This document shows, in pieces, positions 16,322 to 26,695 of a stretch of 64,000 nucleotides of DNA. Location of the stretch: the NCBI GenBank assembly GCA_963728565.1, contig CAVSLC010000025.1:32001-96000 (forward strand), written 5' to 3'. Each line of letters begins with the position of its first letter. The first letter of the stretch is position 1. A program made the translations under genes and the position numbers. The notes below the pieces were generated by a model, which saw nothing but the letters and a program-made list of their open reading frames with translations, was not told the DNA's origin and made no database searches. This DNA is from an uncultured delta proteobacterium (GTDB lineage: Bacteria > Desulfobacterota > Binatia > UBA9968).

Positions 16322-17248
16322 CTATATCGCTTTATCTTCATGGTGTTGCTTGAGCACAGACGCCAGAATGGAAATCAGCAAGATCCCGCCGACCACGCCT
16401 AACGAAATGCCGATGGGGATTTTGTAGAACTCGGCAATCAGCATCTTCGCGCCGACGAAACAGAGCACGAACGCGAGGCCAACCCTGAGATAGCGGAACA
16501 TCTCCATGACGCCGGCGAGAAGGAAGAAAAGAGCCCGAAGCCCAAGGATGGCAAAGACATTGGAGGTATATACGATGAATGGGTCTAAAGTGATAGCGAA
16601 GATCGCCGGGATTGAATCGACCGCGAAAATAACATCAGTGGTCTCGACAACGACAAGCACCAAAAAGAGAGGGGTAGCCCACAGCTTTCCATCTTTGCGG
16701 ATGAAGAATTGTTGTCCCTGGTAGTCCGGGGTCACGTTGATGAATCGACGCACCAAGCGGACAGCCGGATTTTTTTCCGGCTCAATTTTTTCGTCGCCGA
16801 CGAATAGCAACTTAATGCCGGTGAAAATGAGAAAGCCGCCAAAAACATAGATCATCCAGTGGAAGTTGGACAGCAAGGCTGTTCCGGTCGCGATGAAGCC
16901 GGCTCGCAAGACCAGAGCCCCTAGAATACCCCAGAAGAGGACGCGGTGCTGGTAGCTCGACGGAACTGCGAAGTAGGAGAAAATGACCAGGAAGACAAAC
17001 AGATTATCCACGCTCAAAGACCACTCGATCACATAGCCGGTCAAAAACTCCAGCCCCTTTTCCCCGCCGCGAAAAAAATAAATACCCACGCCGAAAAGAA
17101 GGGCCAGGGAAACCCAGACGCAGCTCCAAGCCAAGGCTTCTCGCAGCGAAACAGCGTGGGCTTTGCGATGCAGCACTAGCAGGTCGAGCGCCAGTATGCC
17201 TAAAACAAAGACGTTAAAAACGACCCATAAAAACAGTTGCGAATCCAT
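16322..17248 (-). CDS. TerC/Alx family membrane protein (copy 1)
   Basis: EWSLSVDNLFVF, QHRVLFWGILGA, ETTDVIFAVDSIPA, SNVFAILGLRAL. Confidence 0.95.
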   Translation of the reverse strand: MDSQLFLWVVFNVFVLGILALDLLVLHRKAHAVSLREALAWSCVWVSLALLFGVGIYFFRGGEKGLEFLTGYVIEWSLSVDNLFVFLVIFSYFAVPSSYQHRVLFWGILGALVLRAGFIATGTALLSNFHWMIYVFGGFLIFTGIKLLFVGDEKIEPEKNPAVRLVRRFINVTPDYQGQQFFIRKDGKLWATPLFLVLVVVETTDVIFAVDSIPAIFAITLDPFIVYTSNVFAILGLRALFFLLAGVMEMFRYLRVGLAFVLCFVGAKMLIAEFYKIPIGISLGVVGGILLISILASVLKQHHEDKAI

Positions 17249-17282: not shown

Positions 17283-17612
17283 TTAAATTTGCAAAAGGAC
17301 GTTAAAGGCGCGCAGATTTTGATGGCAACTGTGCGCGCGCAGGTGAATCGTGTCGTAAGACAAGACCTGTTGAAATGAAACTTCGCTGGCGGTCACCGCC
17401 CGCGCGTGCACCGTTACCAACTTACGGCCGCCGGTGCGAAATCTGCGGATGATGGGGGATCTCGTCGAATCGTCCAGTCGGTCCGACGTGACAAAGTCTC
17501 CGGTGGAAATCTCAGCATAGCTTTCAAGTCGATGAGAATCGGTCGCTAATCCGCCGATGAGAAAAAAAATTGTTAAGACCCAAGAAGAAATCGCCGGCTT
17601 CATCAGACGCAC
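17283..17612 (-). CDS. Putative leader protein 1 upstream of terC copy 1
   Basis: 105-109 aa; hydrophobic N-terminus, basic middle, ends NLRAFNVLLQI*; stop 34 nt before terC. Confidence 0.6.
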   Translation of the reverse strand: MRLMKPAISSWVLTIFFLIGGLATDSHRLESYAEISTGDFVTSDRLDDSTRSPIIRRFRTGGRKLVTVHARAVTASEVSFQQVLSYDTIHLRAHSCHQNLRAFNVLLQI

Positions 17613-18594: not shown

Positions 18595-21296
18595 ATGGCA
18601 AACATACAATGGCATTCGACGCAGGTTGATTCCGTCCTCGGTCAACTGGGTACCGATCCACAGCAAGGCTTGACCGTTGAGGAGGCTGGACGGCGACTGG
18701 AGGTACACGGTTACAACGAACTGAAAAAGGAAGAGAAGAGTTCTCCCTTCATCCTTCTCATCAATCAGTTCAAGAACACTCTCATTATCATACTGGCGGT
18801 TGCCACGGTGCTATCCGCGATCATCGGCGACCTGCTTGACGCCGGCATTATCCTGGCGATCATCGTCTTCTGCGCTCTGTTGGGATTTGTTCAGGAGTAT
18901 CGCGCTGAGCGCGCCCTGGACGCTTTGAAGAAAATGCTCACTCCAACGATTACGGCGCTGAGAGGAGGGCGGGAAGAGGAAATTCCATCAAAGGAACTGG
19001 TCCCTGGTGATATCATCCTGCTCGAGGCCGGAGATAAGATACCCGCCGACGGGCGCTTAGTCGAAATTCACTCACTGCAGTGCGACGAGGCTCCATTGAC
19101 GGGAGAGTCCTTTCCCGTGGAGAAAGATCTCAAAGTTTTACCCGAAGCGGTACCGGTAGGCGATAGAAAAAATATGGTATTTACCGGTACCGCGGTTAGC
19201 TATGGCGAGGCAAGGCAGTGGTGACGGATACTGGATTCAAAACCGAGTTCGGGAAGATCGCCAGTGAATTGGCGACCGTTTCGCAGGAGAAAACGCCTCT
19301 GGAAAAACGCACGGAAGAGATCGGAAAATGGCTTGGAATCATTGCCGTGAGCGCCTGTGTTTTGGTTGTGGTGACCAGCATCGTTCGGGAAGCGATCGGC
19401 GGAAGCTTGGATCTGCAATTCATTCTAATGATGCTGATGTTCGCAATTGCCCTGGCAGTAGCTGCCGTTCCCGAAGCGCTTCCCGCCATCGTGACGGGAG
19501 CCTTGGCCATAGGCATGCGTGAAATGGCAAAGCGTAATGCGCTCGTAAGGAAAATGCCGGCAGTGGAAACTCTGGGTTGCACGACGGTGATCTGTTCCGA
19601 CAAGACCGGAACTTTGACGAAAGGAGAGATGACGGTCCGGCGGGTCTTTGGGGGCGGAAAGCCCGTCGAAGTGAGCGGCGTAGGTTATGCGCCCGAAGGC
19701 GGCTTAAGTCCGGCTTCTAATAACCCGTCATTGAACATGCTGTTTAAAGGCGGAATCCTGTGCAACGACTCCACGCTTTTGGAAACGGGAGGCAAGTGGT
19801 CCATCAAAGGCGATCCGACCGAAGCCGCCCTCATGGTCCTTGCAGCCAAGGCAGGGCTGGGGCGAGAGCAAATCAGAAATCAATGTCCTAGGATCGGGGA
19901 ATTTCCTTTCAGCTCGGATAGAAAACGGATGACTACGATCCACACGATGGAGGACGGCAAGCGCAGGGGGTTTATGAAGGGAGCCCCGGAAGTGATCCTC
20001 GATCGATGTTCGTCCATCTTGAGTGGAGATGAGATAAGCGCGTTGGACGACAGCGAACGTAAAAGAATCCTTTCGGCAAACGAGGAAATGGCTACCGATG
20101 CGTTGAGGGTTCTTGCGATAGCCTACAGCGACCTTCCGGAGGCGGATCAATATAACGAAGATTTCGTTGAAAAAGACCTCGTGTTTCTAGGCCTGATCGG
20201 CATGATGGATCCGCCCAGAGAGGAGGCCCTCGAGGCAGTGCGAGTGTGCCGGCAGGTGTCAATTAAGCCCATCATGATCACCGGCGATCACAAACTCACT
20301 GCCCTCGCTGTAGCGAAGGAACTTGGAATTCACCGCGAAGGAGATCTCGTATTTACGGGGGAAGAGCTTAGTAAAATTGACGATGACGAATTTGAACGCA
20401 TTGTTGATAAGATTACCGTCTACGCCAGGGTCTCGCCACTCGATAAACTCAAAATTGTCAAGGCGTGGAAGAACCGGGGCGAAGTTGTTGCCATGACCGG
20501 TGACGGGGTCAACGATGCCCCAGCCTTGAAACACGCCGACATCGGGATAGCGATGGGCATCACCGGCACCGAAGTGGCGAAAGAGGCAGCGGATATCGTC
20601 CTGAGCGATGATAATTTTGCCACAATTGTCCGTGCCATCGAGCGGGGCAGATGGATCTATGACAATATTAAAAAATATTTAACCTATCTACTCAGAGCGA
20701 ATATTACCGAAGTCGTGGTGTTAGGCGGCGTTGTCATGGTCATGGGGCCCGAGTACTTGCCGCTTCTTCCGGCGGCGATCCTGTATATCAACCTGGCAAC
20801 CGATGGGCTTCCAGCGCTCGCGCTGGGGGTGGCGCCTGCGGATCCGGATATCATGCAGAGAGCTCCGCGCGACCCTAGGGAGAGCGTGTTTTCAAAGGAT
20901 GTAAGAATGCTGATCCTGATGGCCGTACTCATCGAGTGCCCGCTATTCCTGTGGATGTTCTTTCGATCCCAACCGGATATGGAACTTGCGCGGACTCTAA
21001 TCTTTTTCATGTTCGTTTTTATCGAGCTCCTCATTGCCGTTAACTTCCGCTCTCTAAGGTACAGCCTGATACAAGCGCCGCCGCACAAGTGGCTCCTGAT
21101 CGCCATCGGCTGGGAACTGGCTCTGATTGTCGTGTTGATTCAATTTCCAGCGGTCCGAGATGCCTTCGGAATCACCATGCCGTCGGCCTCCGACATCGGG
21201 ATGATCGTTGCCCTTGGCGTCGGCATCGTCATTGTAATCGAGATAGCGAAGGCCGGTTTCAGGACGACGACGCGCGGGCGCACTATGACGGCTTAG
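18595..21296 (+). CDS. P2-type cation-transporting ATPase (Ca2+/Mn2+-like), frameshift near 19206
   Basis: LTGES, VPEAL, DKTGTLT, MITGD, GDGVNDAP; two ORFs join at YG(R)GKAVVT. Confidence 0.93.
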
Positions 21297-21825: not shown

Positions 21826-22812
21826 CTAAGCTTCGTCTCCGGTTAGATCCGCTTTGACGGGCTTTTGCAAATGCGGTTCTTTAGGATTTTTGGGCTTGAT
21901 CAGCCACGATGCAATGATCGAGAGCAGCAACACGCCGCCGATGACCGCCAAGGAAACACCGATCGGAATCTTGTAGATGTCGACGAGCATCATTTTGGCG
22001 CCGACGAAGCAAAGAACAACAGATAGACCGATTTTTAGATACACGAACATTTCCATGACACCGGCAAGCATAAAGTAGAGGGCACGCAGTCCGAGAATCG
22101 CAAACACGTTCGATGTATAGATGATGAAGGGATCGTCGGTTATGGCGAAAATCGCCGGAATGGAGTCGATGGCGAAAATCACGTCGGTGGTTTCGACCAC
22201 GATGAGCACCAGCATCAAAAGCGTAGCGTAACTCTTGCCTTCACGGCGAATAAAAAAGTTCTGACCATCGTACTTTCTGATGATCGGTACCAATCTTTCG
22301 AACAGCCTCACCACGGGATTTTTCTCCGGCTCGATCTTTTCGTCTCCTTGAAGGTACATTTTGATTCCGGTGACGACCAAGAAGCCGCCGAAAATATAGA
22401 TCATCCAATGGAAATTGCTCAGCAGCGCGGATCCGGTGGCAATGAAAATGGCGCGTAAGATCAAAGCGCCGAGAATACCCCAAAAAAGCACGCGGTGCTG
22501 GTATTCGCTGGGCGTGCTGAAATATTGAAAGATCATCAGAAACACGAACAAGTTGTCGACGCTCAGGGATTTTTCGATGACATATCCGGTGAGGAACTCG
22601 AGCGCTTTTTCAGATCCCCACGCGTAATAGATCCCAACATTGAAGATCATCGCCAAGCAGACCCAGACAACGCTCCAGATCGATGCTTCCTTAATCGAAA
22701 TCGTGTGGGCTTTGCGGTGGAATACACCCAAATCCAAGGCAAGCATCCCTAAGACAAAAATGTTAAAGCCGATCCAAAGAAATAGTCGTTCCGATTCCAT
22801 TATGACTTCCAT
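21826..22812 (-). CDS. TerC/Alx family membrane protein (copy 2)
   Basis: EKSLSVDNLFVF, ETTDVIFAIDSIPA; clear paralogue of copy 1. Confidence 0.95.
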   Translation of the reverse strand: MEVIMESERLFLWIGFNIFVLGMLALDLGVFHRKAHTISIKEASIWSVVWVCLAMIFNVGIYYAWGSEKALEFLTGYVIEKSLSVDNLFVFLMIFQYFSTPSEYQHRVLFWGILGALILRAIFIATGSALLSNFHWMIYIFGGFLVVTGIKMYLQGDEKIEPEKNPVVRLFERLVPIIRKYDGQNFFIRREGKSYATLLMLVLIVVETTDVIFAIDSIPAIFAITDDPFIIYTSNVFAILGLRALYFMLAGVMEMFVYLKIGLSVVLCFVGAKMMLVDIYKIPIGVSLAVIGGVLLLSIIASWLIKPKNPKEPHLQKPVKADLTGDEA

Positions 22813-22880
22813 TCTCCTGATGTTCGGCGATTGCGCCGAGCTACCCTGTTAAGACAACGACGGGATTGGAGAAAGAAGTC
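22804..22880 (-). promoter_or_regulatory. Predicted RBS/start-codon-sequestering hairpin between leader 3 and terC copy 2
   Basis: mRNA GACUUCUUUCUCC (22880-22868) pairs with GGAGAAUGGAAGUC (22817-22804). Confidence 0.6.
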
Positions 22881-23200
22881 TAAATGCGGAAGACTCGTAG
22901 TAGCCGATGCAAATTTCCAGGGCTACTGCGGGGTGGTGAGAGTGACGTGAGCGAGGATTGCGCTTTTCTAGCTGCGTGTCGGCTGCCGATCTGGGAATTG
23001 AGAGATCGGGCCAATCTTTTCCGGTGCGGTCGAGCTTTGCGTGCTTCCGAATGTCTCAGAATTTGTTCTTGCAGCTTCTCGGAGGAAATAGGCTCGTCGG
23101 CGGACTCCGCGAGCGCCGATTGAAGCACGAAAATATCCATCCCGGAGAGGCCGAAAGTCAGGAAGAAAAGCAAAATCATGTAGCGCAGTGGCGGTACCAT
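22880..23200 (-). CDS. Putative leader protein 3 upstream of terC copy 2
   Basis: 106 aa; hydrophobic N-terminus, acidic then Arg-rich middle, ends NLHRLLRVFRI*. Confidence 0.65.
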   Translation of the reverse strand: MVPPLRYMILLFFLTFGLSGMDIFVLQSALAESADEPISSEKLQEQILRHSEARKARPHRKRLARSLNSQIGSRHAARKAQSSLTSLSPPRSSPGNLHRLLRVFRI

Positions 23201-23242
23201 AAGCTTACATCGCTAACAATTAGGCAAGGTCAAGTCAATCAG

Positions 23243-24889
23243 TCACTGGCCGAATCGAGAATAGTCGTGCTCACGGCTGGTGATGAACTCCAAGAGCGCC
23301 GCCTTACCCTCCTGGGTGGCCTTCTTGGCGCGCTCGAAGGCCGGCGCGATTTTATCCGGATCCTCGACTCTTTCGCTCCAACCGCCGAGCGCCCGACCAA
23401 TATCTGCATAATTGCCGCCGACGTTTTGCGTGCCAAAAAGTTTATGCGAGGTCGCCATGTGGCGCGTTTCAGCGGCCATGAAATTATTGTTCAACACGAC
23501 TGTTAGGATCGGAATATTGCATCGGACTGCCGTTTCGAAGTCCAGCCCGGTCATGCCGAAGGCAGCATCGCCCATGAAGTTGACGCAGAATTTTTCTGGT
23601 GCTGCCAATTTGGCGCCCATGATGAGCCCAAGTCCGGTGCCCAGCGCATGAGATTTTCCCCATCCGATGTAACTGCGCGGGATCGGCGCTTGATAAAACG
23701 GAACCAGTTGATTGCGCGGGCTGCCGGCATCATGAGTGATAATCGCGTCTCTGGGATCGATGGCGCGCATGAACTCCCAAAAAACCCGATAGGGGTTAAT
23801 CGGAACTTCTTTGGAAGTGAGCTTAGGCATCCACTGCTCTAGCCAGGGATCCCTTATTTCCTTGATCTTCGCGGTTACCGCATCCACTTTTTTTGGTCGG
23901 TTCACGCCTTGAGCATCTTTTACCGCTTCAATAAATTGACTGAGCACCGGCTTGGCATCACCTAGGATCGGAACGTCGGCGATATAGTGTTTATTGAGGT
24001 CGCGCTCGTCGTTGGTCGCATGGATAATGGTTTTGCCAGGAGGAATAGGCGCAGCGACGATGCTATGCCGGGTAAGACTCGCGCCGATAGCGAATACGAC
24101 ATCGGCCGTCCGCAAAAACTCGTGCACTGTCGGGGGCATAACCCCAGCGCCGGTGCCGAGCGACAATGGATGAGTTTCCGGGAATGCGCTCTTGCCTTCG
24201 AGCGGCGTGGTCACCGGCGCTTGCAGCAATTCGGCAAGCTCGAGCAACTCATCCGATGCCTCGGCGTAGAGTACGCCTTGTCCGGCAATGATAACCGGGC
24301 GATGAGCTTGCACCAGAATCCGCGCAGCTTCAGCGATATCCTGGGGATTCGCGCCACTAACCGTGCGTCTGACCGGGGCATAAATGAGTTCGTTATCGTT
24401 CATCTCCTCAGTCGCTACATCGGCCGGAATCTCAACAAGCACGGGTCCGGGCCGGCCCATTTTCAGAAGGCTGAATGCGCGTCGCATGACGTCGCTGGTA
24501 TGAGAAGCCAGGGCAATTTCTTCGGTCCACTTGGTTACCGTCGCGTAGGATTGCGTTGATCTAAAGAAGTGATGGACCTGAGAAGTGGATCGAGCGTGGC
24601 CGACCGGTAAAAGCAGAACTGGAACCGAGTCGGAATAGGCAGTAGTAATGCCTGAATAGGCGTTTTCCGCGTCCGGGCCCGCCTGCATCGTAAACACGCC
24701 AATGCGCCGGCCATTTAAAATCCGGGTATAACCGTCGGCGATGCCGACACCGACTCTTTCTTGACGACAGATCAACGGCTTAATCCCCGCCGCCGCGGCA
24801 GCCTCGATCAGGGTATTGGTTGGATAGCAAGCAAGAAAATCCACACCTTCACGTTTTAGGATTTGGCTGATGGCATCGACAACTCGCAT
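23243..24889 (-). CDS. Thiamine pyrophosphate-requiring enzyme (acetolactate synthase-like)
   Basis: RQERVG, GRPGPVLVEIP, GDAAFGM...LNN TPP motif. Confidence 0.92.
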   Translation of the reverse strand: MRVVDAISQILKREGVDFLACYPTNTLIEAAAAAGIKPLICRQERVGVGIADGYTRILNGRRIGVFTMQAGPDAENAYSGITTAYSDSVPVLLLPVGHARSTSQVHHFFRSTQSYATVTKWTEEIALASHTSDVMRRAFSLLKMGRPGPVLVEIPADVATEEMNDNELIYAPVRRTVSGANPQDIAEAARILVQAHRPVIIAGQGVLYAEASDELLELAELLQAPVTTPLEGKSAFPETHPLSLGTGAGVMPPTVHEFLRTADVVFAIGASLTRHSIVAAPIPPGKTIIHATNDERDLNKHYIADVPILGDAKPVLSQFIEAVKDAQGVNRPKKVDAVTAKIKEIRDPWLEQWMPKLTSKEVPINPYRVFWEFMRAIDPRDAIITHDAGSPRNQLVPFYQAPIPRSYIGWGKSHALGTGLGLIMGAKLAAPEKFCVNFMGDAAFGMTGLDFETAVRCNIPILTVVLNNNFMAAETRHMATSHKLFGTQNVGGNYADIGRALGGWSERVEDPDKIAPAFERAKKATQEGKAALLEFITSREHDYSRFGQ

Positions 24890-25175: not shown

Positions 25176-25943
25176 CTACGAATCAAATTGAATCCGCCAG
25201 TAATAGTTCGCAAGGCCGATGTACTCGTGCACCGTTGCGTATATGCCGCGAGCGGCGCCTTCGCCCGGGAAAAAATCCAGTGGCGTGAGTCGCAGCTTGC
25301 CGAGCGTGTAATCGCCCGGCGCCGGAACCGGTTCCGGGGCTTTTGCTTTGAATGCCAGCATGCTGCGCGGCATGTGCAGTGCTGATGTAACCAGCAAGTA
25401 GCGCTTCCAACCCCGCCGTTTGAGAAGCTTTTGCACTTCAGCTGCGCTCTCGAAGGTATCTCGGGATCTGCCCTCGCCAATGACATGGTGTTTCGGCACG
25501 CCCCAGCGAATCAGATACTCGCGACCGATCCGGTTCTCGTCTTTATCGGGGGTGAACGGATTGACGTGCCCGCCGGATAGAATAATCGGCTTGGGTTGGA
25601 TTCGATAAAGACGCCAGGCTTCATCGAGACGGCGAAACATATGCTCGTCTATGGTCGAGAAAGGAATCAGCCCTTCGGGCGGGATCATACTGCCGGTGAG
25701 GACCACGATGGCGTCGTAAGAGAGAGCGCCCGGATCGAGCAGCGGCGCATAGCGTGACTCAAGGGGATAGCGCAACGCATAACCAACCAAGCTGCTGTGC
25801 AACGCGGTGATCAGCACCAAGGTCAACAGAAGTAACTTGCGGGCCCAGCGCCGGCGCCAAAATATCAGCACCGCCAGCAGCATCAGCAGCCATGGGGTTG
25901 GCGGTAGAACGAGCGCTTTCAGAAACTGCTTAAGTACGAACAT
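25176..25943 (-). CDS. YdcF/ElyC (DUF218) family protein
   Basis: ILSGG, SRDTFESA, LVTSALHMPRS, HEYIG. Confidence 0.9.
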   Translation of the reverse strand: MFVLKQFLKALVLPPTPWLLMLLAVLIFWRRRWARKLLLLTLVLITALHSSLVGYALRYPLESRYAPLLDPGALSYDAIVVLTGSMIPPEGLIPFSTIDEHMFRRLDEAWRLYRIQPKPIILSGGHVNPFTPDKDENRIGREYLIRWGVPKHHVIGEGRSRDTFESAAEVQKLLKRRGWKRYLLVTSALHMPRSMLAFKAKAPEPVPAPGDYTLGKLRLTPLDFFPGEGAARGIYATVHEYIGLANYYWRIQFDS

Positions 25944-26049
25944 CGATGGTCATCAGAAGCCTGACGAGAAAAGGCATGGATCAACAATTGGAGTATGCTC
26001 GTCCACCTCGAACATAAACGAACTGCCGGCTGATCATCGCGACTGCTAA

Positions 26050-26695
26050 CTATTCCGCGTCGGGTTGGTGTTCCGGCGCGGCATTGGCAAACGCTGGAAG
26101 GGACATACAGGCAGATTCGACTGCGAGCAGTTTTGGGTACGCTGACAGATCGACACCGAAGCGGCGCGCATTGCCGAGTTGCGGCACAAGGCAGATATCG
26201 GCCATGGTCGGCGTTTTGCCGAAGCAAAAATCTTCCCTGTCCGGTAACCGAATTTATCATCTGTTCCAGCGCCGAAAACCCAAGATTGATCCAATGGCGC
26301 GCCCAACGGATCGTGTCGTCATCGGATTGTTTGTGATCGCTCTTGAGGTGATTCAGCACCCGGAGATTTTGAATCGGATGCACCTCGCAGGCAATCAGCA
26401 GCGCCATGCTGCGCACGACCGCGCGCTCGGCTGCATCGCTGGGGAGCAAAGGCGGTTTTGGATAGCGCTCATCCAGATACTCGATAATCGCTAAAGACTG
26501 TGAAAAAATTTGTCCCTCATCTTCCAGCGCCGGCACTAGAGCCTGTGGATTGATCGCCTTGTACGCCGGCTTCAACTGCTCGCCGCCGCCGCGCCGCAAG
26601 TGTATCGGCGCCTGCTCGTAATCCAGACCTTTTATGTTAAGCGCGATGCGTACGCGGTAGGATGCCGAACTGCGAAAAAATGTATAAAGCTTCAT
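26050..26695 (-). CDS. maiA: Maleylacetoacetate isomerase (zeta GST), frameshift near 26230
   Basis: FRSSASYRVRIAL, NPQALVP, HPIQNLRV; shifted frame gives MADICLVPQ...PEHQPDAE*. Confidence 0.9.

Follow-up and report, generated by a model that had tools for sequence, protein, structure and literature searches.

How does a gene come to be translated when its start is base-paired to the end of the reading frame in front of it? The question is raised by terC-2, a TerC-family gene in a 64,000-nucleotide (nt) stretch of DNA, here called the window, from an uncultured delta proteobacterium of the class Binatia (assembly GCA_963728565.1, contig CAVSLC010000025.1, positions 32,001 to 96,000 of the forward strand). 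Proteins of the TerC family occur widely, and recent work connects them with manganese export and with the metalation of secreted enzymes. Ahead of terC-2 lies a small upstream open reading frame (uORF), and an earlier note, made from the letters of the window alone, had proposed that a ribosome dwelling at the stop codon of this "leader 3" would switch terC translation on. We find that the terC-2 start is held in a two-part helix with the 3′ end of the uORF, that the strands of this clamp are conserved and co-vary among relatives, that the occlusion is strong, and that the uORF is conserved as a protein. On the basis of these observations and of a modelled ribosome at the uORF stop, we consider it rather probable that ribosomes reaching the end of the uORF gate the translation of terC. 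The parts of the locus, given here with the minimum-free-energy (MFE) fold and comparative pairing on which they rest, are as follows.

21826 to 22800, minus strand: terC-2 coding sequence, 324 amino acids (aa) from ATG 22800; TerC family, Pfam PF03741, E 6.7e-53; start assigned by alignment.
22880 to 23200, minus strand: uORF-2 ("leader 3"), 106 aa plus TAG; signal-peptide-like N-terminus, acidic cluster, basic stretch and C-terminal NLHRLLRVFRI.
22883 to 22915, minus strand: last 11 uORF codons, the conserved C-terminal motif; 76/97 cluster representatives end in RI.
22880 to 22882, minus strand: uORF stop UAG; U and A in register with G and U of the terC AUG in relatives, G opening helix B in the window.
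22883 to 22895, minus strand: helix A, 5′ strand (last uORF codons); MFE pairs, fixed-register pairing in 28 loci.
22784 to 22801, minus strand: helix A, 3′ strand; terC-2 start codon (22800–22798) and codons 2 to 6; MFE and fixed-register pairing.
22868 to 22880, minus strand: helix B, 5′ arm, GACUUCUUUCUCC; MFE fold and co-variation.
22804 to 22817, minus strand: helix B, 3′ arm, GGAGAAUGGAAGUC; Shine-Dalgarno GGAG (22817–22814) and the AUG at 22812, probably not a start.
22818 to 22867, minus strand: 50-nt loop closed by helix B; local hairpins at 22864–22844 and 22839–22824; sequence not conserved.
23233 to 23238, minus strand: −35-like hexamer TTGACT, 5′ of the uORF; TTGA invariant in 24/24 aligned loci; putative promoter.
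23210 to 23218, minus strand: extended −10-like element, TGT plus TAGCGA, 17 nt past the −35-like hexamer and 9 nt ahead of the uORF ATG.

In the MFE fold of 22777–22912, GACUUCUUUCUCC at 22880–22868, whose first G is the last base of the uORF TAG (22882–22880), pairs with GGAGAAUGGAAGUC at 22817–22804 through 13 bp that include one G-U, with one bulged U (helix B). The individual pairs run from G22880-C22804 to C22875-G22809, followed by U22874-G22810, the bulged U22811, and U22873-A22812 to C22868-G22817. This reproduces, with exact coordinates and pairs, the stem drawn in the earlier note (6 bp, a G-U with a 1-nt bulge, then 6 bp, from the last base of the UAG onward). Stacked on helix B is helix A, in which 22895–22883 (the last four uORF codons and one base) pairs with 22801–22784, and in which ATG 22800 is bound by U22884-A22885-C22886. 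Together, the two helices comprise 26 bp with a duplex energy of −28.2 kcal/mol and close a loop of 50 nt that contains two local hairpins. A G+C-rich hairpin, often with CGGCGC, recurs within this otherwise variable loop, in the window (22824–22839, minus strand) as in many relatives, and may help to close it.

Which AUG starts terC-2 determines which of the two helices holds the start codon. The reading frame is listed as running from ATG 22812 to 21826 on the minus strand. The paralogue terC-1 (16322–17248, minus strand; 71% identical to terC-2) aligns from residue 5 of this long frame, i.e., from ATG 22800, and orthologues with TerC identity of at least 67% begin M-[D/E]-S or M-T-P at that same position, a few of them with GTG. 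ATG 22812 is probably not a start, because it lies 1 nt after GGAG and is thus too close for GGAG-led initiation. These alignments indicate that terC-2 probably starts at ATG 22800 and is held there by helix A rather than by the stem originally described; that stem was said to cover both GGAG and the AUG, which is correct for GGAG, but the AUG that it covers is the one at 22812. A terC-2 start at 22800 that was independent of the stem had been named as evidence against the leader model. The start does fall at 22800, but helix A pairs it and the sequestered GGAG serves it too, so it cannot be called independent of the structure.

Taken as a single sequence, the stem is unusual but not overwhelming, and it is the comparative evidence that makes it solid. 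A 111-nt fold of the region has z = −2.3, with 4 of 200 shuffles folding equally well. Paired with the 26 nt that precede ATG 22800, the 24 nt following the stop form a duplex of −19.7 kcal/mol; 36 of 5000 dinucleotide-preserving shuffles reach this value, as do 5 of 9140 24-nt windows on the same strand of the window. The degree of occlusion, on the other hand, is exceptional for this genome region: opening positions −18 to +12 of terC-2 costs 21.4 kcal/mol, and the corresponding cost at 21 other gene starts in the window averages 11.1 kcal/mol (standard deviation (sd) 2.8) with a maximum of 16.6 kcal/mol.

To place the clamp in the context of related loci, we drew on 41 whole genomes of relatives, of which 21 gave a TerC match (20/24 in the same GTDB family; G012 and G018 enter only the 41-genome tallies), on 79 loci from public genome contigs and on 80 from metagenome contigs. 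The arms slide in register between loci, which makes measures taken column by column weak; register-free duplex tests were therefore used, in which the pairing of each locus's own stop-side window with its own start-side window is set against pairing with the windows of other loci over 20,000 permutations. This design controls for composition and for the conserved GGAG; all relatives are kin, and relatedness of the loci widens the true variance but should not favor own arms. For both helices in 23 loci, own arms pair at −22.19 kcal/mol versus −18.11 (sd 0.67), and for helix B in 22 loci (three near-duplicates, L033, L036 and L037, dropped) at −15.26 versus −11.96 (sd 0.60). In a set of 55 loci that includes metagenome loci and was thinned from 91 loci with 70 distinct arm pairs, helix B gives −15.76 versus −12.48 kcal/mol (sd 0.40); in each of the three comparisons, 0 of 20,000 permutations reach the value of the own arms. 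The co-variation in orthologues that had been named as a check is thus clear in the register-free tests and weak column by column, where the co-variation score is 0.144 and 0.160 versus 0.120 and 0.128 in shuffled alignments (5/500 and 2/500 as high).

The position of the clamp is likewise retained. In the MFE folds of the 55 thinned loci, the Shine-Dalgarno region pairs with the stop-proximal 26 nt (helix B) in 43 and terC +1 to +12 pairs with the uORF end (helix A) in 37, and, of 22 loci, 12 start the 5′ arm of helix B with the final base of the stop and 18 start it no more than 4 nt away. With its MFE pairs, kept position and co-varying arms, the proposed sequestration of the terC-2 Shine-Dalgarno by an arm beside the stop stands. 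In fixed register, the terC start codon has its U and G paired to the A and U of the stop in 28/28 loci, and the next nine positions are paired in 16 to 27 of the 28; the helix A pair −7/+9, which is G-C (6) in the terC-1 clade, is C-G (8) or U-G (6) among loci of the terC-2 clade. A relative of about 95% identity, known from RNA-library contigs (see below), carries two differences in the 5′ arm, minus-strand A22879 to G and C22875 to U, both of which keep pairing as G-U wobbles. The loop varies in both sequence and length, and the spacers range from 55 to 105 nt among loci. A covariance model, R1, re-aligned the same loci almost unchanged and found no further copy in the window; among terC-1-type loci it matched only L028 (24.3 bits), and L003, the third TerC locus of the genome, gave no match.

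If the clamp is to be opened by translation, a ribosome at the end of the uORF should expose the terC start. We modelled this by keeping unpaired the nucleotides that would lie beneath a ribosome whose A site holds the uORF stop. The predicted cost of opening terC-2, 21.4 kcal/mol without the ribosome, then drops to 9.8 kcal/mol, which falls among the values of ordinary genes, and the mean over 22 loci falls from 17.6 to 11.5 kcal/mol. The earlier claim that a ribosome at the leader stop frees the terC start is therefore borne out in the model for the window and for most relatives, with the exception of 7 of the 22 loci, to which we return below.

The term "leader" suggested a short leader peptide; we find instead a conserved 106-aa reading frame for a small protein with a signal-peptide-like N-terminus. 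Among the genomes of relatives, a uORF of 100 to 116 aa is present in 15 of 23 upstream regions and ends 32 to 93 nt before terC. In genome contigs, it is found in 20 of 22 loci with TerC identity of at least 71% (one of these, L037, is disrupted) and in 0 of 56 more distant loci among the two longest upstream frames listed per locus. In metagenome contigs, it accompanies terC in 66 of the 68 loci with enough upstream DNA, a further 12 being too short upstream; the two misses are L166, which ends in ILRM and was excluded by the filter pattern, and L160, which gave no match. The uORF frame of L037 lacks a usable start, with C-terminal motif and clamp intact, and both L037 and L160 may represent decay or assembly errors. 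A profile of 26 uORF proteins retrieved 97 clusters at E ≤ 0.001 (48 at E ≤ 1e-10) from 1.84 billion representatives, nearly all of them 95 to 116 aa long and aligned end to end. The 26 members have no Pfam or NCBIfam name, with only scattered single matches at E 0.014 or worse, and a word-based protein search returned seven close relatives, all annotated as "hypothetical protein." The nearest named lead in a protein Atlas that otherwise gave unnamed Binatota clusters is CzcI (0.91, only 81 shared features), which we treated as a chance resemblance. The genome of the window itself holds two uORF copies, each 5′ of a terC, the one ahead of terC-1 at 17283–17603 (minus strand) with a spacer of only 34 nt. 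Across 301 sampled genomes of the class, the uORF is confined to the family to which the window belongs (6 of 25 genomes, G000 not counted), with two further weak matches elsewhere, one of them with three in-frame stops. By this sequence evidence, the uORF family is tied to terC in one family of Candidatus Binatia, a lineage of soil bacteria.

Members of the family share a common architecture. A hydrophobic N-terminal window (13 aa with mean Kyte-Doolittle hydropathy ≥ 1.8 within the first 40 residues) is found in 79 of 80 full-length members and is preceded by Lys or Arg in 66; the export signal is thus judged by hydropathy and basic residues, that is, as signal-peptide-like. An acidic cluster (four or more Asp/Glu in 12 aa) is present in 78 of the 80, with its center 66 to 70 aa (interquartile range) from the C-terminus, and the spacer from the hydrophobic window to the C-terminal end is 79 to 95 aa (median 89; 80 members). 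The middle of the protein is poorly conserved, and the last 4 to 10 residues are the most conserved. AlphaFold2 predicts a helix at residues 3 to 18 only (predicted local distance difference test (pLDDT) ≈80 for that block) and no folded domain, with a mean pLDDT of 59.9 and a predicted template-modelling score (pTM) of 0.23. A complex prediction of TerC-2 (residues 1–310) with the uORF protein returned "no answer" at a score of 0.00, which has no bearing on binding.

The C-terminal consensus reads L-H-x-L-L-Q-[VI]-[FL]-R-I followed by the stop; RI ends 76 and [RQ][IVLFT] ends 91 of 97 cluster representatives, and position −4 is Val or Ile in 83 of 91 and position −3 Phe or Leu in 73. No proline-rich or other known arrest motif is found at this end; within the last five positions, Pro is among the six commonest residues only at −5 (8/91). 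The last uORF codons approximate the reverse complement of the first terC codons, so conservation here could in principle reside in the RNA. However, Arg at position −2 is encoded by CGC (11), CGA (6), AGA (4), CGT (2) and CGG (1), its third base being mismatched to the helix partner in 13 of 24 cases (a tally from codon counts and fixed register), and the Leu codons at −10, −7 and −6 vary as well. Since conserved residues use synonymous codons and the motif extends past the paired part, the peptide itself is under selection, and the uORF end is, as read from these alignments, conserved at both the peptide and the RNA level. The stop codon is UAG in 20 and UAA in 8 of the 28 loci, and among 66 metagenome loci, 65 have UAG and one has UAA; UGA is never used, as compared with 42% TGA, 31.5% TAA and 26.6% TAG among the long reading frames of the genome (n = 2168). 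Pairing with the terC AUG accounts for the U and A of the uORF stop, but not for the G.

Upstream of the uORF, 24 aligned loci share TTGACT-N14-TGnTAGCC, in which TTGA is invariant, TTG nearly so, and the A of TA invariant. This promoter-like element ends 7 to 9 nt before the uORF ATG in the loci examined, and a Shine-Dalgarno-like motif precedes the uORF in only 2 of 30 loci. Because a promoter-like motif lies directly before the ATG and no Shine-Dalgarno is found in 28 of 30 loci, the uORF would be the first cistron. From this we infer an extended −10 promoter and a leaderless or near-leaderless uORF mRNA. A scan for consensus σ70 promoters under a stricter rule gave 0 sites in 22700–23400. 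Contigs from four RNA-library runs of one study bridge 22703–23299 and thus span the terC 5′ end, the spacer and the uORF; they derive from the ≈95%-identical relative, hold at most 0.26 of the sampled words, and show neither strand, level, 5′ ends nor RNA origin, so that they count only weakly in favor of the gating.

These elements suggest the following sequence of events. uORF-2 and terC-2 would share a single mRNA. There the uORF 3′ end, with its last four codons, its UAG and 12 nt beyond, would lock into the 26-bp helix a terC-2 start region that begins with the Shine-Dalgarno GGAG, takes in AUG 22800 and reaches as far as codon 6. A ribosome reading the end of the uORF would unwind the 5′ strand, and at the UAG its mRNA channel would cover most of that strand; the start region freed in this way could be initiated by a second ribosome or by the same one. 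If ribosomes do open the helix and thereby turn terC on, as we infer from the modelled ribosome, then terC-2 output would depend on uORF translation and scale with dwell time at the stop. More speculatively, and with considerable reserve, the invariant C-terminus and the UAG may program a regulated pause that is tuned by export of the nascent chain or by periplasmic metal. A length of 66 to 70 residues from the peptidyl-transferase center should suffice, given general tunnel and channel lengths, to pass the ribosomal tunnel and a translocon. The geometry of the uORF would thus fit sensing across the membrane: with the ribosome at the LQV[FL]RI-UAG end, the acidic cluster 66 to 70 residues upstream would just have emerged on the periplasmic side, where binding of Mn2+ or Ca2+, or the secretion state, could set the termination time at the UAG and hence the time for which the clamp is open. 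TerC production would then be tied to conditions outside the cytoplasm through a motif unlike any known arrest peptide. It is possible, though we advance this only tentatively, that the uORF is a new Binatia-specific nascent-chain sensor acting across the membrane, with a leaderless mRNA, a signal peptide that leads to the Sec channel, and stalling at the termination stage on LQV[FL]RI-UAG.

Several observations weigh against gating by the uORF ribosome. In the 7 of 22 loci mentioned above, the modelled ribosome relieves less than 2 kcal/mol. Helix B is absent from the MFE fold in 12 and helix A in 18 of the 55 thinned loci; RNAalifold on a MAFFT alignment yields 0 consensus pairs; the double-changed pairs number 8 and 11, as compared with 7.4 and 8.1 in shuffles (237/500 and 38/500 as high), and the cells paired amount to 72.8% and 73.5% versus 70.5% and 71.1%. 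In the window, 13 nt separate GGAG from AUG 22800, which is long for Shine-Dalgarno spacing. The RNA-library contigs run past the proposed promoter, so read-through from an upstream gene is possible. Finally, the terC-1 start region is open (4.9 kcal/mol), and terC-1 with its uORF, open start and 34-nt spacer shows that a uORF can exist without a strong clamp. In other genomes, the spacers at terC-1-type loci measure 82 to 88 nt, and the uORF end pairs with the terC-1 start over 11 bp.

What terC-1 retains also bears on an alternative that we regard as rather unlikely but worth serious attention, in which the coupling is passive and stoichiometric only, nothing is sensed at the stop, and TerC has in the uORF product a small, stable partner in the periplasm or membrane. 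The full-length conservation of the uORF architecture, its occurrence with both terC paralogues, its persistence at terC-1 without a strong clamp, and a C-terminus without a proline-rich or other known arrest motif all speak for this reading. Against this, AlphaFold2 finds no fold beyond the N-terminal helix (mean pLDDT 59.9, pTM 0.23), the middle of the protein is poorly conserved, and the greatest conservation falls on the last 4 to 10 residues followed by UAG or UAA and never UGA, which is unusual for a structural partner. That the helix is instead a static repressor opened in trans by a protein, a small RNA or a metal, either in the manner of a riboswitch or as a protein-bound operator, is improbable. 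TerC genes elsewhere are indeed under leader RNAs that occlude the ribosome-binding site (E. coli alx, in the available text of PMC9472077), and the G+C-rich loop hairpin is found in many loci; yet the loop as a whole differs between loci in both length and sequence, what anchors the 5′ strand is the uORF stop codon and not a ligand pocket, and no Rfam family, yybP-ykoY included, reaches its gathering score over the 64 kb, with only two unrelated weak matches at E ≤ 10 over 22600–23400. Least credible of all, and in our judgment very improbable, is that a pyrimidine-rich stretch happens to complement a purine-rich ribosome-binding site, or that the stem is a transcription terminator. The single sequence by itself would allow for chance, given the 36 of 5000 composition-matched shuffles that pair equally well, but co-variation and positional conservation over the 55 thinned loci do not; and for a terminator, there is no T-run after the stem and a terminator scan returned nothing at 22804–22880.

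The proposed gating of terC by uORF ribosomes can be compared with a number of known systems. In classical structure-mediated coupling, as in operons and RNA phages, a downstream start is paired with the end of the upstream cistron and is opened by upstream translation. The terC-2 start region is similarly base-paired to the 3′ end of the uORF, and differs from the classical case in its 79-nt looped-out spacer, in a stop that lies opposite the start, and in a lineage-specific exported peptide with a near-invariant C-terminus. Small uORFs with DUF2946 function in metal homeostasis in CutF-cutO of Rhodobacter capsulatus and CruR-bfrG of Bordetella (bioRxiv 10.1101/2025.02.05.636593; PMC9973294, PMC9426467, each in its available part), and in CutF and CruR a metal-binding motif lies in the exported part of the nascent chain (available text of bioRxiv 10.1101/2025.02.05.636593). 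As far as the accessible portions of these reports go, the common features are a small reading frame of the Sec-signal type 5′ of a metal-homeostasis gene and an intervening stem-loop that shields the downstream ribosome-binding site. Unlike CutF and CruR, however, the uORF family has a DUF2946 match in 0 of 26 members (E ≤ 1), lacks a Cys/His motif (49 of 84 members have no Cys) and carries an acidic cluster instead, and has no proline repeat, its C-terminal LQV[FL]RI standing directly at the stop. Furthermore, what is targeted here is TerC and neither a copper oxidase nor a TonB-dependent transporter, the stop codon forms part of the 5′ arm and the start codon part of the 3′ strand, and the uORF looks leaderless.

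A second group comprises the Sec/YidC monitoring substrates (SecM-secA, MifM-yidC2, VemP-secDF2 and newer families), for which the available text of PMC10987492 gives as criteria (i) a uORF of a sec or yidC gene that encodes an unannotated small protein, (ii) an N-terminal signal or transmembrane segment, (iii) a conserved C-terminus and (iv) a spacer of more than 30 aa. By that text, the uORF family resembles these substrates in its N-terminal export signal, conserved C-terminus and spacer of more than 30 aa, and under (i) in having no annotated function, but its downstream neighbor is TerC (PF03741) and not sec or yidC. As in the SecM type described there, the downstream Shine-Dalgarno lies in a stem that overlaps the ribosome position at the uORF end, with the opening only modelled here; in contrast to the substrates of that report, no RAPP-like C-terminal sequence is found, and any pause would occur at termination, not elongation. 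The word TerC does not occur in the available text of PMC10987492, whose supplementary data could still list a TerC-linked uORF. A third comparison is with the 5′ RNA structures that control TerC-family genes post-transcriptionally, namely the yybP-ykoY Mn riboswitch and the pH-responsive element of E. coli alx (PMC9472077, PMC13598126, in the parts available). In these as described and in terC-2, a 5′ structure occludes the ribosome-binding site of a TerC-family gene, but in terC-2 the occluding strand is the coding sequence and stop of a uORF, not a ligand-binding aptamer.

The literature that we searched gave no link of TerC to an arrest peptide or a uORF, no work on TerC in Binatia and no manganese or TerC analogue of the copper uORFs, and the uORF-terC clamp arrangement does not seem to have been described. 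In this lineage, control of TerC by a Mn riboswitch or pH leader seems to be replaced by a protein-coding uORF with its stop opposite the terC start in a co-varying helix. If uORF ribosomes open this helix, the locus would illustrate, cleanly and in nature, long-range coupling that is enforced by structure. Should the C-terminus pause termination as well, the locus would represent a new arrest-peptide family outside the Sec/YidC and copper systems, with TerC as the regulated target, and would offer a testable link of secretion or periplasmic metal status to TerC supply. Reports place TerC proteins at the Sec translocon in the metalation of exoenzymes (PMC10550928, PMC12096827, in their available text), which makes a link between export and TerC plausible, although not evidenced. 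Published arrest-peptide screens, by the available text of PMC10987492, covered only sec and yidC neighbors; the terC-2 locus suggests that they miss other targets.

Finally, some features of the terC genes and their surroundings deserve mention. TerC-2 orthologues of 384 to 439 aa occur in L008, L012, L013, L034, L035, L038, L041–L043, L047 and L057, and their C-terminal extension is absent from the 324-aa protein of the window. A 258-aa reading frame at 25919–26695 (minus strand) matches N-terminal glutathione S-transferase domains only and, given that its C-terminal half has no match, may be frameshifted. Between the two terC genes, a P-type cation ATPase is divided over two overlapping reading frames in different frames, 18595–19224 (plus strand), with the N-terminal and E1-E2 domains, and 19218–21296 (plus strand), with the remainder; this split may represent a frameshift, an assembly error or a pseudogene.

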